Of a DNA stretch of 64,000 nucleotides, positions 40,837 through 48,256 are shown in pieces. Position 1 is the stretch's first letter, and every line of letters starts with the position of its first letter. The notes under the pieces are model-generated. The model saw only the letters and a program-made list of their open reading frames with translations, ran no database searches and was not told where the DNA came from. The DNA is from a bacterium. Its GTDB lineage: Bacteria > UBA8248. The stretch spans positions 2,976,001 to 3,040,000 of the forward strand of contig OZ242260.1 in NCBI GenBank assembly GCA_965207065.1, written 5' to 3'. Position numbers and translations under genes: made by a program.

Positions 40837-42909
40837 ATGAATCAGCCCCTGCAGAAGAACCGCCTCGCACAGGAGACGAGCCCGTACCTCTTGCAGCATC
40901 AATACAATCCGGTGCAGTGGTATCCCTGGGGCGAGGATGCGCTCCGCAAATCAAGAGAAGAGAACAAACCCATTTTCTTGTCCGTCGGCTATTCCGCCTG
41001 CCATTGGTGCCACGTGATGGAGCATGAGAGTTTCGAGGATGAGGGGATCGCTGAAATACTGAACAAGCATTTCGTTTCCATCAAGGTGGACCGGGAAGAA
41101 CGGCCTGATATCGACGGTATCTATATGGAAGCGGTGCAGATGATGACGGGCCAGGGCGGTTGGCCGATGAGCGTTTTCCTGCTCCCGGATTTGAGGCCCT
41201 TCTTCGGGGGCACGTATTTTCCGCCGGATGACAAATGGGGGAGGCCCGGCTTCAAAAACGTGCTCTTGAGGCTGGCCGAAGTTTATCAAACGAGACAGGA
41301 CGATTTGCATACGAACGCAGAAAGCATCACTGCGAATCTGCAGCAAATGGGGGTCGTAACGCCTGCGGAAGGTGATTTGAAAACGGAGTGGATCGACCAG
41401 GCCGCTCAGGAACTCAAAGATCGATTCGATTCCACCTGGGGCGGTTTCGGGAACGCTCCCAAATTCCCGCCCTCCATGGCGCTGATGCTACTTTTAAGAA
41501 AATGGAAGCGGTCCCCGGATCAGGAATTGCTGAAGATGGTCGAGATAACGCTTCAAAGAATGGCGCTGGGCGGGATGTATGATCAACTCGGCGGCGGTTT
41601 TCACCGCTACAGCGTGGATGCTTACTGGCTCATTCCGCACTTCGAGAAAATGCTTTATGACAACGGCCTTCTCGCCAGAGTCTACCTCGAGGCCTACCAG
41701 GCGACGGGAAGCGCGTTTTACCGCTCCGTGGTGGCGGATACCCTCGATTACGTTTTGCGCGAGATGACCAGCCCGGGCGGGGGATTCTACTCCGCGCAGG
41801 ACGCCGACAGCGAGGGTGAGGAGGGCAAGTTCTTCGTATGGCGTCCTGAGGAGATAGAAGAGATTCTCGGCAAAGAAGAAGCTGACATATTCTGCCGGTT
41901 CTACAGCGTGACGGAAGAGGGGAACTTCGAGGGCAAAACCTCCGCCTTGTTCATTCAGAAACCACCTCGCGTTTTCGCTGAGGAGTCGGGGATCACGGAG
42001 GAGAAGCTCTTTGAAGTCTTACAAAGAGGGCGCGCAAAACTCTTCGCCGAGCGGGAAAAACGTGTGAAACCTGGTCTGGACGATAAAATTCTTACGAGTT
42101 GGAACGGGCTCATGATCGGCTCGATGGCTATGGCGGGCAGGATTCTGGAACACCCCCCCTATGTGGAAGAAGCGGGCAAGGCGGCGGATTTTATTTTGAA
42201 CAACATGCGCGATGAACGCGGATTGCAGAGAAGCCACCGGGAGGGTGTGAGCAAGTTCAACGCGTATCTGGATGATTATGCTTTTCTGATCCTGGGCCTG
42301 GTAGATTTGTACGAGGCGAGCTTCGAGCCCCGGTGGATTCGAGCGGCCTCTGATTTGGCGCGGGAGATGATATCGCGCTATTGGGATGATGAAGGGGGCG
42401 CATTCTTCTTTACGGCCCACGATCATGAACAGCTCATCGTGAGGAAGAAGATGACGCAAGACGGCGCCGTTCCGAGCGGGAACTCGATGGCGGCGCTGGC
42501 GTTACTGAAGCTGGCGAAACTCTCGGGCGAGACGGAATTCGCAAAACGCGGCGAGGAAGTTTTGCGCTCGTTCGGCGATTATTTGGGCCGCGTTCCGGCC
42601 GCCTTCCACATGATGCTGGTGGCGCTTGATTTTCATCTGGATTCCCCGGTGGAGGTGGCGATTGTCGGTGAGAAAAACGCAGAAGATACACAAGCGGCCC
42701 TCAGGGTCGTTGATTCCCGCTTCATTCCCAATAAAGTATTGGCTCTCAAGTCCGAATCATCAGGCGAAGAAGCAGATGCCACAGTGCCTCTGCTCGATGG
42801 AAAGGCCATGGTGGAGGGACGAGCCGCCGTCTACTTGTGTGAAAATTTCACGTGCAAGGAGCCTCTTACGGACCTAAGCGCAATTGAGAAAGCGCTCGAG
42901 AGCGGTTGA
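40837..42909 (+). CDS. Thioredoxin domain-containing protein (YyaL/SPATA20 family)
   Basis: [37 protein letters not shown] and DADSEG motifs. Confidence 0.93.
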
Positions 42910-43700: not shown

Positions 43701-44342
43701 CTAGTTTCGGTGCCTGGAGAATGCCTCACCAATGCTCATGCCTTTATCGAGTTCCGCGATGATTTTTTCTTCGATTTCCGCCAGCTCATCCATCTTGTCG
43801 ATGACTTCTTCGAGCCTTTCCCCGGGGATGACGACAACGCCGTTGACGTCGCCAAGAATGATGTCTCCCTGCCTCACCGCGACGCCCCCGCAATTGATCG
43901 GCTCTCCCACACTGATGGGAACCGTATACCCACCGCTGCCGTGAACCGATACCCCTCTGGCGAATACGGGAAAACCCGCCTGGCGGTGTTCTTCGATGTC
44001 CCTTGCCCTGCCGTCCAGGACGACGCCACCTAAATTCATCACCTTCGCGCGCGTGGTCATCATCCCGCCCCAGTTGGCCGTCGTGACTCCGGGCGGGATG
44101 CTGATGACGACGATGCTCCCCTCGGGCGCCGCGTCGATGTGGTGTACCTCGCGTTTGGGCAGCGGTCCGCCGCCGGCGGGAACCATTCGAACGTTATGGG
44201 CTTCCCCCACCATCCTGTAATCCGGGTCGGGCGACAACAGGATGATGTCGGGCATGTGGCCCCTGATTTTCAATTTGTCAAAAGCGTCCGCTACCTGACA
44301 GGCTGAATAGCCCCTTAAGCGATTTACCAAGTCATTGCTCAT
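43701..44342 (-). CDS. RraA/HMG aldolase family protein
   Basis: VADAFD, ANWGGMM, DGRARD, FPVFA and GDIILGDVNGVVVIP motifs. Confidence 0.9.
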   Translation of the reverse strand: MSNDLVNRLRGYSACQVADAFDKLKIRGHMPDIILLSPDPDYRMVGEAHNVRMVPAGGGPLPKREVHHIDAAPEGSIVVISIPPGVTTANWGGMMTTRAKVMNLGGVVLDGRARDIEEHRQAGFPVFARGVSVHGSGGYTVPISVGEPINCGGVAVRQGDIILGDVNGVVVIPGERLEEVIDKMDELAEIEEKIIAELDKGMSIGEAFSRHRN

Positions 44343-44427: not shown

Positions 44428-45180
44428 CTAAAAACGGAATTCCGTAAAGCGTACGCCATCCGGGTCGAGTTCCTCCAGGGCATCCAGTTCTTCGGCGCTT
44501 GGCGCGTGGGTTTGCGCCACGACGCTCGGGCGTTCCAGTTCGAAGCCGGTATTCTTGATCACTTCATCCACCGAGTGTCCAGGGTGAACACTGGCAATCT
44601 CGAGCCCGGTGGATTTTTTCTCGAACAAGGCAATGGGCGTCACCAAGTGGCTCAGTCTGCCTGATTGGGTAGAGAAGTCGACCCGGGGTACGAGAAATCG
44701 CCTGTCGTGCACAGTTCGCCATATGACGGTGCGTTTCACCTGAGGCATGATGACGGCGCCTCCCCCTCCACCGGGAAGCCTCACTTTCGGCTGGAACGGG
44801 TCGCCGATGTAGCTCATGTTGGCTCGCCCTTGTTTGTCGAGTTGAGCGGCTCCCAGGAAAGCCATGTCCACCCCGCCGCGCGCAAAAAGATCGTACATGT
44901 CCGGGTTGTAGAACATAGATGCCGCACCGTGGCAGAGTTCAGGGTCGGCCGTGCTGTTCGGCATGAAGCGCGGTTTTGGGTCCACCGAACCAGCGACTTC
45001 TATGAGCGAGCAATTGGGGGCATGTCGTTTCTTGGCCAAAAAGATCGCGATCATGGGAAGCGGGGAGTTAACCCCGTGAAACACATTCTCGCCGTCTTCG
45101 ATGAGGCGCGAGAGCGTGACGGCCATCTGGTTTCCGGCGCGGATTACGTGCTCGGGCAACGAGGCCAGGCGGCTGCCCAT
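44428..45180 (-). CDS. Class I CoA-transferase-fold beta subunit (GctB/PcaJ-like)
   Basis: FLGAAQLDKQGRAN, RLPGGGG, LVTPIALF and SVHPG...NTGF motifs. Confidence 0.88.
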   Translation of the reverse strand: MGSRLASLPEHVIRAGNQMAVTLSRLIEDGENVFHGVNSPLPMIAIFLAKKRHAPNCSLIEVAGSVDPKPRFMPNSTADPELCHGAASMFYNPDMYDLFARGGVDMAFLGAAQLDKQGRANMSYIGDPFQPKVRLPGGGGGAVIMPQVKRTVIWRTVHDRRFLVPRVDFSTQSGRLSHLVTPIALFEKKSTGLEIASVHPGHSVDEVIKNTGFELERPSVVAQTHAPSAEELDALEELDPDGVRFTEFRF

Positions 45181-45182
45181 CG

Positions 45183-46010
45183 CTAATTTGTCACCGCATC
45201 TTGTGCGTGTGATTCGTCGGTGCTGGCCAGATATTCCCGAAGCCCGTTCTGGCTTTGGGTCAAGGTCATGTAACGACTCATTTCAGTTTTGTCGACCCCA
45301 TAGTATGGGTGGCAACTGCAGGGAGACGCCCCGCCCGGCGTTTCCACGACTGCTTTGACGAGGAAGCCTGGAATAGTGGTTCTCTCCGGTTCCGCTGCGA
45401 TCTCTTCAGAGCCAACGATTTTTTCGGTCGTGAGAATGACCCCTTTTTGCGCCGCGCGCGTCATTTCAACGTCGAATTGCTGGTTGCCCAGGATTTGCGC
45501 GTTTCCCTGCGGGTCAGACTTCTGGACGTGTATCAATGCCCAGTCCGGCTTGAGAGCGGGAATCGCATAGAGTTCCTCTTTCGTGTAGGGGTCTTCCATC
45601 GTGAAGATGCCGCTTTGCTCCGGGATGTCGCTCCCGTCGAAACCGCGAATGGGCTGGAAGGGAACGCCGTAGGCTGCGGCCCGCAGCCCAGCAAGAACGC
45701 TGGCTCAGGCGTGCTCGGTCAGGCCGGCAAGTCCTTTCTCTATCGCCTTCCGGTAGTGAGGCGCCAATCCGAATTCCGCCTCGAAGGTGACGATGCCGCT
45801 GATGATTCTCTTCACGGCCCCTGCGGCGCAAAGGAGATCGGCGTCGTAACCGGGAGAGGGTTTGATGAGCGTGAGATCCCGAAGGTCCGCGCGCGCGATT
45901 TCACGGATGAGGGCGGCGGGCGTTCTGTGCAAGAGGGTGCCGCCGGGACTTATTGCGTCTCCTCCTTCAATGAGAGAAACGGCTTCTCGTAAGGACATTT
46001 GCTTGCTCAT
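45183..46010 (-). CDS. Class I CoA-transferase-fold alpha subunit with in-frame TGA at codon 102; candidate selenoprotein (275 aa on readthrough)
   Basis: ORFs 45705-46055 and 45183-45599 are in the same frame, joined by ...LTEHA[TGA]ASVLAGLRAAAYGVPFQPIRGFDGSDI...; downstream PDWALIHVQKSD..GNA and PGGASP motifs. Confidence 0.8.
45666..45692 (-). promoter_or_regulatory. Candidate bacterial SECIS element
   Basis: mRNA GCUG-GGCUGCG-GGC-CGCAGCC-UA-CGGC at +13 to +39 after the UGA; 7-bp perfect upper stem; G-starting apical loop at +24. Confidence 0.55.
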
Positions 46011-46242
46011 GGCAGCTTCCATCCACTCGTTTTGGGCGCATGATGTGGGCAACACAAATTATGGGGCATAGTTTAACAAATGTTGATGATTTGTGCTTGC
46101 GCTCATGCGCCTTCATGCCGTCAGAGAAGTGAATTTGACGCATTCATTGACCGAGAACCCGGTGTGGCGTAAATATCGATGAGATGAGAGTTGCTCTCAT
46201 GCGCAAGTATACTTCCAGATGAATCAATCGAAGGAGCATGGA

Positions 46243-46755
46243 ATGCCACGGATTTCCTTGTTAGAGCCCGAGCAGGCGGAAGCATCCGCGAAACGCATCA
46301 TGGAGAATCTGAAAAAACAATTCGGTGTCGTGATTCCGCCTGTGAAGGCACTGGCCCACAAACCGGATTTTTTGCGTTCTTTGCTGAGCTTGACCACGGT
46401 GGCGGACGGCCCGGGGGAGATCGACGTCGGCTTCAAGGAAATCTTGAACATTCGCGCATCGGTGCTCAACGGGTGTCATTTTTGCACCAACATGCATTCC
46501 AACATGGCAAGGATGCACAAGGCAGGAGACGAGAAGACGAAAGCCGCGCAAGAGGGTTCCTCGAGTGACGTCTTCGATGAGAAGGAGAAGGCGGCGCTTC
46601 GCCTTTGCGAGGAGAGCACGCAGGGGGTGAGCGTTTCGGACGGGACGTTTGAAGCGCTGAAGGCACACTATTCTGAAGCGCAGATAGTGGAGCTTCTCGG
46701 CGCCATCGCACTCATCAACACCTGGAATCGACTGATCGTGGGAATGGGCTTTTAA
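46243..46755 (+). CDS. Carboxymuconolactone decarboxylase / AhpD-like protein
   Basis: KEILNIRASVLNGCHFCTNMH, EKEKAAL, QIVEL and NTWNR motifs; AAGGAG RBS. Confidence 0.9.
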   Translation: MPRISLLEPEQAEASAKRIMENLKKQFGVVIPPVKALAHKPDFLRSLLSLTTVADGPGEIDVGFKEILNIRASVLNGCHFCTNMHSNMARMHKAGDEKTKAAQEGSSSDVFDEKEKAALRLCEESTQGVSVSDGTFEALKAHYSEAQIVELLGAIALINTWNRLIVGMGF

Positions 46756-46802
46756 TACGAAGACCTAAATAATTACCAACCATGTAGGCTGCGAACGAGA
46801 TT

Positions 46803-47981
46803 TTAGAGGCTTAATGCGGCCCTGCTGACCGTGAGTTCGGTTTCTCCGAGAAGCTCCGATGTCGTGAGTTTACCGCTCATCACCGCTATCAGTTCTTTTT
46901 CGAGCAGATCTCTCGCCTCATCGATTCGCATCGTCCCCTCCATGACGCCGCTGATGTCCACGTCGATGTTCTCGGCCATCGACCGCGCGGTACGGGGATT
47001 GCCGGTCACTTTGATGGTGGGAGAGATGGGATGGCCGATGGGGTTGCCGATTCCGGTCGAGAAAACGATCGCCTGCGCTCCGCTGGCCGCCAAAGAGGAA
47101 ATGTTCTCTACGCCCGCGCAGGGAGCGTCGGCGAAGATGGTGCCTTTCTTCGAAGGACGCTCTCCCACACCGACGACTTCGACAATGGGGTGACTGCCCG
47201 CTTTCTTGATGGCTCCCAGGCTTTTCTCCTCGATGGACGACAGACCGCCCCGGATGTTATCCGGCGCCGGGTTCGAGCCGATGAAGTCGACGCCGATGCT
47301 TTCGGCGTAATCGACGGCGCTCTTTGCGGAATCGATGATTTTTCGCGCCGTTTTTTTGTTTGTAGCCCGGCGGGCGAGTAGATGCTCGGCGCCCACGATT
47401 TCCAGCGTCTCGGAAAAGATAACCGAACCCCCCGCTTCCACGACTCTGTCGGCGACCATGCCCGTCACGGGGTTCGAGATGACGCCGCTGGTCGTATCCG
47501 AGCCTCCGCATTCCGCCCCGATGGTGAGTTCGCCCAACTCACAGCGGACTCGCTTGGCCGATGCGAGATGGGCGGAAAGTTTCGTGGCGAGTTCCACGAC
47601 ATGCGAGGTGGTGCTGAGCGTGCCTCCAATCTCCTGGATGTTCACGGCTTCTATGGGCATCCAGGGAGACGTTTTTGCGGCTACTTCCGCGATGGCGTTG
47701 GCGCTCTTGGGTTCGAGGCTCACGATGATGGCGGCCCCGACGTTCGGGTGGGCGGCGGTGTGTCCCATAACCCGCCAGTGTTGCGTCTCGTCCTCGCCCA
47801 TCAGGGCGCGTCCGAACGAGGTGTTGACAGGGGTGGCGTCTCGCACCAGCGAACCGATTCTGCGGACGATGGGGTTGGAATTGTCCATTCCGCTGACGAT
47901 GGCGAGATGATTCCGGCCACCCGGAGGACCTTCAAGTCTCCTGTAGCCCCAGAAAGTGGGAGTTGCTTTTTTCCGGGCCAT
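46803..47981 (-). CDS. UxaA/GarD/SuyB family lyase, large subunit (sulfolactate sulfo-lyase beta-like)
   Basis: FWGYRR, HPNVGA, ECGGSDTTSG, FSET, GGLSSIEEKSLGA and FSTGIG motifs. Confidence 0.85.
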   Translation of the reverse strand: MARKKATPTFWGYRRLEGPPGGRNHLAIVSGMDNSNPIVRRIGSLVRDATPVNTSFGRALMGEDETQHWRVMGHTAAHPNVGAAIIVSLEPKSANAIAEVAAKTSPWMPIEAVNIQEIGGTLSTTSHVVELATKLSAHLASAKRVRCELGELTIGAECGGSDTTSGVISNPVTGMVADRVVEAGGSVIFSETLEIVGAEHLLARRATNKKTARKIIDSAKSAVDYAESIGVDFIGSNPAPDNIRGGLSSIEEKSLGAIKKAGSHPIVEVVGVGERPSKKGTIFADAPCAGVENISSLAASGAQAIVFSTGIGNPIGHPISPTIKVTGNPRTARSMAENIDVDISGVMEGTMRIDEARDLLEKELIAVMSGKLTTSELLGETELTVSRAALSL

Positions 47982-47983
47982 GC

Positions 47984-48256
47984 CTAGCCTCTTGTGCTCT
48001 TGATGTTATGGACGTGAACGTGACAGCCTGCGGGTATTTCTTGTGTGGCGGTGCCGATGACCTCGCCGTATTTGAGCACTTTTGCGTTCGAGCGGATCTT
48101 GCGCAGCGCAATTTTGTGTCCAAATGGAATGGATTCAGTTGCGGATAGCGTGATTGTCTCATCCCCGCCTTCGATTTCCACGCTATGCCCTGAGGAGACG
48201 TCCTCGAGAACAGTGGCCACGTTGTCTTTCGGGTGCATCACCAGCGCTCGGCTCAT
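47984..48256 (-). CDS. SAF-domain small subunit of the UxaA/SuyA family
   Basis: HPKDNVAT, IPFGHKIAL, KYGEVIG and HVHVHNIKS motifs. Confidence 0.88.
   Translation of the reverse strand: MSRALVMHPKDNVATVLEDVSSGHSVEIEGGDETITLSATESIPFGHKIALRKIRSNAKVLKYGEVIGTATQEIPAGCHVHVHNIKSTRG

Follow-up and report, generated by a model that had tools for sequence, protein, structure and literature searches.

The closest described relatives of the enzyme considered here are two-subunit proteins of the coenzyme A (CoA)-transferase fold. One of them is IpdAB, the steroid ring-cleaving hydrolase of Mycobacterium and Rhodococcus (PDB 6CON, 6CO6, 6CO9, and 6COJ), the beta subunit of which, to our knowledge, lacks a catalytic Glu. 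In glutaconate CoA-transferase (GctAB; PDB 1POI), the catalytic Glu is located in GctB (PMC7756340). The same source assigns the 3-methylglutaconyl-CoA decarboxylase AibAB of Myxococcus xanthus (PDB 5MZW-5N03) to the glutaconate CoA-transferase family as an enzyme repurposed for another reaction, in which the conserved catalytic Glu of the beta subunit is replaced by Cys56 of AibB (PMC7756340). Here, we analyzed an alpha-beta gene pair of this fold on a 64,000-nt stretch of DNA (contig OZ242260.1, positions 2,976,001 to 3,040,000, assembly GCA_965207065.1; hereafter, the window) from a bacterium of the UBA8248 lineage, in which the alpha-subunit gene contains an in-frame UGA codon. Comparison with homologous sequences suggested that selenocysteine (Sec) is inserted at this codon, at the likely active site of the alpha subunit, a reading to which we assign a probability of roughly 0.8.

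The alpha gene had been noticed in a first-pass annotation, made from the DNA alone, as two open reading frame (ORF) fragments joined across a TGA. The two fragments indeed form one frame, which runs on the minus strand from the ATG at 46010 to the TAG at 45185-45183 and, when TGA is translated as Sec (U), comprises 275 codons plus the stop, codon 102 being the only internal stop. The sequence around it, ...GAGCACGCC TGA GCCAGCGTT..., reads ...GAG CAC GCC TGA GCC AGC GTT... and gives the protein context TEHA-U-ASVLAGLRAAAYGVPFQP. The claim that the family match is intact on either side of the TGA, without any further lesion, also held: the Pfam domain CoA_trans (PF01144) spans the UGA and covers residues 5-223 of the uninterrupted frame (E 6.2e-21). 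In the NCBIfam scan, subunits of 3-oxoacid and acetate CoA-transferases were matched only weakly, below threshold, and neither a selenoprotein model nor one specific to a family was hit. The features of the locus are listed in Table 1.

Table 1. Position of the alpha-subunit gene, its in-frame UGA and the neighboring features within the window
Feature	Position	Strand	Remarks
Alpha-subunit gene, CoA-transferase-fold heterodimer	45183..46010	-	PF01144; AlphaFold2 model; Foldseek top matches IpdA, GctA, AibA
In-frame UGA, almost certainly read as selenocysteine (U102)	45705..45707	-	Orthologs TGA, paralogs Cys; Sec machinery in genome
SECIS-like hairpin, 8-bp stem with GGC apical loop	45671..45689	-	Overlaps codons 108-114 (GLRAAAY)
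Beta-subunit gene	44428..45180	-	PF01144 (E 7.4e-19); without canonical class I catalytic Glu
RraA-like / class II aldolase-family gene	43701..44342	-	Downstream in operon; PF03737, E 5e-31
CMD/AhpD-like gene	46219..46758	+	Divergent; CHFC (CxxC) motif; PF02627
SAF small subunit	48256..47984	-	Upstream of alpha
UxaA/GarD-like dehydratase large subunit	47981..46803	-	Upstream of alpha
DUF255 thioredoxin-like (DsbH/YyaL-type) gene	40837..42909	+	690 aa; close to operon

The search for relatives covered 61 genomes, 45 of which contained a match. Thirty matches of at least 65% identity were found in 29 genomes, all from the family of the window, and each had exactly one TGA; one of them also continues beyond its own TAA stop. 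After 29 of the 30 sequences were fetched (the second copy in genome G006 was left out), TGA was found at codon 102 in 29 of 29 orthologs, down to 65% identity, within the motif TEHA-U-[AP][ST][VI]LAGLRAAAYG. The paralogs of the same genomes carried TGC or TGT at this site in 24 of 24 cases. Matches of 53% identity or lower were stop-free, except that a single TGA occurs in an incomplete match of 40% identity (G016:C3:194103-194543), located in a same-genus genome without a Sec ortholog. The genome that contains the window encodes two further stop-free alpha paralogs, one with 46% identity and Cys at the site (C1:840885-841694) and one with 38% identity (C1:145830-146612).

A database search showed that close full-length homologs carry Cys (E[HN]AC) and more distant ones Glu or Ser at the site; seven matches were fragments of 161-170 aa that start directly past it. 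Metagenomes were searched with an alignment of such fragments, so that the scan is biased to Sec forms. Among the 78 loci with upstream sequence (80 were returned), the codon at the site was TGA in 55, TGC in 15, and TGT in 8, which gives 23 Cys forms. The TGA forms belong to ten motif classes, e.g., TENS-U-PVIYAGMRAAS, EHS-U-ATILAGMQAAS, and EHS-U-PGILAGLQAGAS. The unannotated Acetoanaerobium match was suspected to be a cultured Sec form and was ruled out, as it has Cys at the site (NEHAC). A quick maximum-likelihood tree was built from non-identical rows of loci that had at least 70 residues upstream and 140 downstream, 126 in total, of which 64 were Sec, 58 Cys, and 4 of other types. On this tree, at least six Sec/Cys changes were needed, and at least four of them were forced by well-supported branches. 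Thus, the column proposed for checking in the first-pass annotation is Cys or TGA across lineages.

A lone in-frame stop is the usual sign of a broken gene, and a pseudogene or a sequencing error could produce the same picture at a single locus. The sequencing data and the conservation of the gene make this explanation extremely improbable. Fifteen runs from seven studies contained at least half of the sampled words; the source sample may be the one with the highest content. The whole stretch is also spanned by contigs of another, independent run, with zero differences at 45705-45707. A 178-nt RNA-library contig bridges 45657-45834 with 0 differences, which indicates presence in the library and is not proof of transcription; contigs of this kind reach only 45257-45550 and 45657-45834, and the uncovered parts are uninformative. 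The same TGA recurs in 29 genomes, 55 metagenome contigs, and the independent-run contigs. In addition, the median dN/dS, calculated from 27 usable pairs of 9 orthologs, was 0.156 upstream and 0.116 downstream of the UGA, i.e., about 0.12-0.16 on either side, and the frame carries no other lesion.

The machinery for Sec insertion, for which a genome search had been suggested, was found in full. The host genome, a single contig of 4.48 Mb, contains selA (517 bits) adjoining selB (386 bits), a tRNA-Sec with the anticodon TCA, and selD. The latter is interrupted by an in-frame TGA as well, within the motif VKAGG-U-GSKLGP; it is a selenoprotein gene with its own downstream hairpin (C1:543537-544499, minus strand; locus L011). 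According to BSepDB, the UBA8248 lineage is among the most selenoprotein-rich. An in-frame UGA can also leak, and UGA102 might be read as a standard amino acid through near-cognate suppression or an altered genetic code, although nothing specific supports this. We consider such decoding very unlikely: TGA is a genuine stop in rlpA of the window, and 9 of the 29 orthologs use it to end the alpha gene, the tRNA-Sec is the only tRNA with the anticodon UCA, homologs have Cys and not Trp or Gly at the site, and a conserved hairpin is restricted to the TGA forms.

This hairpin, a putative bacterial Sec insertion sequence (bSECIS), had been reported 3' of the TGA with a stem of 7 bp. The structure is real, and the earlier version sits within a stem of eight pairs, the outer one being G-U. 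Its arms occupy 45689-45682 (5') and 45678-45671 (3'), on either side of the GGC loop at 45681-45679. The stem begins 16 nt past the UGA, the spacing between the UGA and the loop is 23 nt, and, counted from the UGA, the G that opens the loop is nt 24, as had been stated. [quoted passage not shown] With a GGC loop, 8 bp, 23 nt, and -12.9 kcal/mol for the hairpin in isolation, the element lies within all of these ranges; these values, together with covariation, bear out the proposed agreement with the bacterial SECIS model.

The comparative data on the hairpin are extensive. When the 29 orthologs were compared in 7-codon windows over the entire gene, synonymous entropy reached its minimum at codons 108-114, with 0.114 vs. 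a gene mean of 0.975. Pairing was evaluated in a fixed register, with nt 19-26 paired with nt 37-30, numbered from the U of the UGA. All eight pairs were present in 50 of the 62 distinct Sec segments and seven of eight in the other 12, whereas the 20 distinct Cys segments had 3-7 of 8 pairs, most frequently 5; the GGC loop was invariant among the Sec forms. Paired cells accounted for 97.6% across the 62 Sec segments, with compensatory changes at four of the eight pairs and both sides changed in 26 cells. None of 500 shuffles reached the observed pairing or covariation, and sliding the partner by 1-3 columns lowered the pairing to 35-50%. In one compensatory pair, C-G to A-U in 15 sequences, both changes are non-synonymous, Leu109Met on one side and Ala113Ser on the other. 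The SECIS-like element overlaps the conserved AGLRAAA motif, a clear instance of protein and RNA constraint acting on the same bases, and in some subfamilies the replacements of Leu by Met and of Ala by Ser are the two halves of a single compensatory base-pair change.

The hairpin and the Sec/Cys pattern also bear on the possibility that the gene is truly split, with translation stopping at UGA102 and the C-terminal part produced from an internal start. Public gene predictions present it in this way, as a 101-aa N-terminal piece (P0129) and C-terminal pieces of 161-171 aa (P0008, P0037, P0088, and others). However, no restart codon is conserved: the first in-frame ATG, GTG, or TTG past the UGA is codon 105 in 2 of 29 orthologs and lies at codons 121-183 in the other 27, the next in-frame start in the window being codon 138. 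Purifying selection acts on residues 103-136, where conservation is high, and since the first in-frame starts fall at codons 121-183 in 27 of 29 orthologs, an internal restart would miss the most conserved stretch. A split gene would, moreover, leave the hairpin and the Sec/Cys pattern unexplained, and we regard it as very improbable. UGA102 is, in our view, almost certainly decoded as Sec, presumably by SelA, SelB, SelD, and tRNA-Sec under the direction of the 8-bp, GGC-loop hairpin within the coding sequence. The Sec insertion suggested in the first-pass annotation is thereby supported by sequence comparison (the TGA/Cys column, the covariation of the hairpin, and the sel genes). The findings named there as speaking against it did not appear: homologs have Cys or TGA at the site, the sel genes are present, and the independent-run contigs keep the TGA.

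Among solved structures, the alpha sequence gave the best match to AibA (E 3.2e-32), followed by IpdA of M. tuberculosis (8e-32), GctA (1.6e-31), and then IpdA of R. jostii. A Foldseek search with the AlphaFold2 model of the alpha subunit (pLDDT 94.7) placed IpdA first (6con_A, E 1.5e-26, TMq 0.89), with GctA and AibA next, in line with the relationship that the first-pass annotation had proposed to check on a structural model. Residue 102 is the first residue of a helix (102-114) that directly follows a strand (96-99) of this model. The HMMER alignment with M. tuberculosis IpdA (6con_A) pairs U102 with the second Glu of REMDEGML; the motif and the residue named in the first-pass annotation are thus correct. 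Two chains of R. jostii IpdA, 6co6_A and 6coj_A, differ within the aligned chain residues 94-145 solely at the site residue (E vs. A), and the PDB title of 6COJ is "IpdAB E105A COCHEA-COA complex." Since the alignment column is the residue altered in 6COJ, Sec102 is the counterpart of IpdA Glu105.

The distribution of residues at this site was assessed in the 150 best family representatives, which comprised 62 with Glu, 27 with Cys, 15 with Gly, 15 with Asn, 24 with other residues, and seven fragments without the site, one of which is a 101-aa piece terminating exactly at the UGA. The alpha gene therefore falls into a Cys/Sec sub-branch of the GctA/IpdA/AibA group, in which the site is a hot-spot of function and the residue of the classical transferases has been lost. 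On these grounds, U102 is probably located in the active site. Two further Cys residues were compared between the forms, in rows that are not phylogenetically independent: of the 64 Sec forms, 61 retain Cys233 and 46 have Cys231, and of the 58 Cys forms, 48 retain Cys233 and 3 have Cys231.

Comparison with the described systems revealed that the locus is similar to each of them and identical in type to none. It shares with IpdAB the alpha/beta CoA-transferase fold, 30-32% alpha identity, the best structural match of the alpha model, and the alignment of U102 with the residue changed in the E105A substrate complex. Unlike IpdA, which has Glu at the site, the alpha subunit of the window has Sec and its relatives have Cys; the similarity between the beta subunits is remote (E 1.3e-6), and the genes near the window alpha gene are UxaA-like, CMD-like, RraA-like, and RlpA, with no steroid-catabolic genes among them. 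AibA and AibB are the best sequence matches for both chains; however, the window beta subunit has Val62 where AibB has Cys56, the alpha subunit has Sec where AibA has Gly, and no isovaleryl-CoA biosynthesis neighbors occur at the locus. GctAB has the same fold and two-gene layout (alpha E 1.6e-31, beta E 1e-21), but GctB possesses the catalytic Glu where the family of the window has Val or Ile, and GctA carries Gln at the Sec site.

The beta-subunit gene begins 3 nt past the alpha stop, and its best PDB match was AibB (E ~1e-35). Val62 occupies the position of AibB Cys56, i.e., the position of the Gct catalytic Glu, as deduced via the AibB alignment. Among 73 distinct beta segments taken from Sec and Cys loci, 72 have Val or Ile at position 62. 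Both subunits show the profile and fold of class I CoA-transferases, whereas the catalytic Glu of the beta subunit is missing, and the enzyme is likely not a canonical CoA-transferase. It could nevertheless be a working CoA-transferase that uses another carboxylate, e.g., beta Glu61, with Sec or Cys at residue 102 serving as a redox switch or a structural residue without a role in catalysis. Glu61 adjoins the canonical position in the lineage of the window, the Cys forms are located among acyl-CoA genes, and, because AibA has Gly and GctA Gln at the site, this site is not catalytic in every relative. However, residue 61 varies family-wide (Asn in 30, Glu in 25, Thr in 10, and Ser in 7), residue 62 is almost invariably Val or Ile as given above, and the AibB alignment is indel-free between the HAP and GS anchors. 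The Cys loci often have an acyl-CoA ligase or a family III CoA-transferase of their own next to them, so that a second transferase would be unnecessary there. Sec is also costly and has a reactive-site location in known families (PMC13188914). A non-catalytic Sec is, for these reasons, unlikely, and an active-site Sec is the reading followed below.

The gene neighborhood provides some indications of the context in which the enzyme may act. Within the lineage, a module of the CMD/AhpD-like, alpha (Sec), beta, and RraA-like genes is kept down to about 65% alpha identity; the RraA-like gene stays after beta in the lineage loci over this range, and the CMD/AhpD-like gene stays beside the Sec-alpha gene in several genera. 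The CMD/AhpD-like protein is a possible thiol-disulfide partner of the Sec-containing alpha subunit. Its gene also gave a weak NCBIfam match to "YciW-related (seleno)protein" (78 bits vs. a cut-off of 310). Another thiol-redox gene close to the operon encodes the DUF255 protein listed in Table 1. The UxaA-like pair was found beside alpha only in the genus of the window, among the searched-genome loci with genus labels; its SAF subunit has 90 aa and its large subunit 392 aa, an arrangement known from those UxaA/GarD-type dehydratases that consist of two subunits. The sister genus instead has an alpha(Sec)-beta-alpha(Cys) tandem. A Sec-form alpha-beta pair lies beside a Cys-form alpha gene in tandem in this genus (L041, L044, L045, L120, and L121) and in convergent orientation at L140-L142.

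Other Sec subfamilies have unrelated neighbor genes. The Bordetella/Achromobacter-type Cys forms have an AMP-forming ligase on one side and, on the other, a family III CoA-transferase or an enoyl-CoA hydratase. A cultured organism with a Cys-form homolog (43% identity) is Nocardioides sp. JS614, the plasmid pNOCA01 of which carries a "CoA-transferase" pair of the ethene/vinyl-chloride (etn) cluster; unlike the alpha subunit of the window, it has two adjacent Cys (ESCC) and not Sec at the site. The genes around this pair (L168, 6977-8718) encode a CoA-disulfide-reductase-like flavoprotein, an SDR, and an ADP-forming acyl-CoA ligase, in addition to etnE/etnABC. The Cys forms of JS614 and of Acetoanaerobium noterae each follow a CoA-disulfide-reductase-like flavoprotein; tblastn found no such neighbor in any Sec locus examined, and the association is a lead from two genomes, not a pattern. 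PDB searches with the RraA-like and UxaA-like neighbors gave no substrate clue. The neighbors were called by greedy ORF picking, which in this GC-rich DNA is polluted by antisense and off-frame ORFs, and the calls were used only together with Pfam checks and tblastn of the window neighbors.

Besides Glu61 and the residues of AibA and GctA at the site, several points weigh against Sec insertion at the active site. The support for Sec comes from sequence comparison. The fold of the 74-nt segment has a z-score of 0.01 vs. shuffles, and its MFE structure chooses another pairing; the ensemble probability of the hairpin is about 11% in a 60-nt context, and the MFE of the 57 nt past the site does not differ between 39 Sec and 21 Cys sequences (p = 0.85). 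Folding energy was consequently dropped as evidence for the hairpin. An Rfam scan of 45500-45800 yielded one chance-level match and no SECIS family. For the predicted hairpin, we take the comparative evidence as decisive, energy alone being uninformative in GC-rich DNA. As regards the active site, the alpha model was built with Cys replacing Sec and with the beta subunit absent, and the catalytic role of IpdA Glu105 is taken from the title of PDB entry 6COJ and is reportedly described by Crowe et al. in 2018. Finally, because the gene context differs among the Sec subfamilies, no substrate can be inferred from it.

With these points in mind, a mechanism can be outlined for an active-site Sec. 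In this sub-branch, the beta subunit has lost the canonical catalytic Glu, and the alpha subunit presents Cys or Sec at the equivalent of IpdA Glu105, at the N-terminus of a helix. The selenolate may serve as the catalytic nucleophile or as an acid-base group, and its substrate may be bound either in the form of a CoA thioester or as an adduct with a comparable thiol cofactor. The enzyme may then be of a repurposed lyase, hydrolase, or thiol-exchange type instead of a true CoA-transferase. In general terms, we infer an acyl-CoA- or thiol-cofactor-dependent enzyme with a selenolate or thiolate at residue 102 and, possibly, disulfide-type turnover. The reduced state of Sec may be maintained by the adjacent AhpD-like CxxC protein or by the conserved Cys233. 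Covalent or redox selenium chemistry at residue 102 is a tentative suggestion, with the odds somewhat against it. Still more speculative, and rather unlikely as a whole, is the proposal that this first CoA-transferase-fold selenoenzyme would represent a third catalytic solution, in which a CoA- or thiol-cofactor-bound substrate is attacked by a selenolate located where IpdA has Glu105, and the resulting covalent intermediate (Se-acyl, Se-alkyl, or Se-S) is resolved by a dedicated thiol-disulfide partner. Candidate resolving partners would be the AhpD-like CxxC protein here and the CoA-disulfide-reductase-like flavoproteins beside the two Cys forms.

The locus resembles catalogued bacterial selenoproteins in its single UGA, its Cys homologs, the in-ORF SECIS-like hairpin just downstream, and its selenoprotein-rich host lineage. 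The first-pass annotation had named no characterized selenoenzyme of the CoA-transferase fold, and this agrees with Table 1 of a 2026 review, in which none of the 119 prokaryotic selenoprotein families and subfamilies is a PF01144 or CoA-transferase entry (PMC13188914). Most of the families listed there are thioredoxin-fold or otherwise redox proteins, and the review does not mention PF01144, glutaconate, oxoacid, or IpdA. The main texts of deep-Sep and BSepDB (111 families) likewise contain no mention of CoA, transferase, or glutaconate. The 2007 Olavius symbiont paper had nothing relevant on CoA-transferase selenoproteins, and a literature search combining selenoprotein or selenocysteine with CoA-transferase returned nothing pertinent. 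As far as these catalogues were covered (Table 1 and the main texts), the predicted family is an uncatalogued selenoprotein family with an ordinary bacterial insertion mechanism.

The family is not rare, with ten Sec motif classes on 55 metagenome contigs and at least six Sec/Cys switches. Since public gene calls divide such genes into pieces of 101 aa and about 165 aa, annotation pipelines systematically mis-annotate them. The analysis would also pinpoint the likely catalytic residue for an uncharacterized Cys/Sec branch of the GctA/IpdA/AibA group and offers enzymologists a concrete variant series at residue 102 (U, C, E, and A). If the mechanism with a covalent selenium intermediate is true, selenium would enter acyl-CoA or C-S bond metabolism in widespread uncultured bacteria of soil, sediment, and symbioses.

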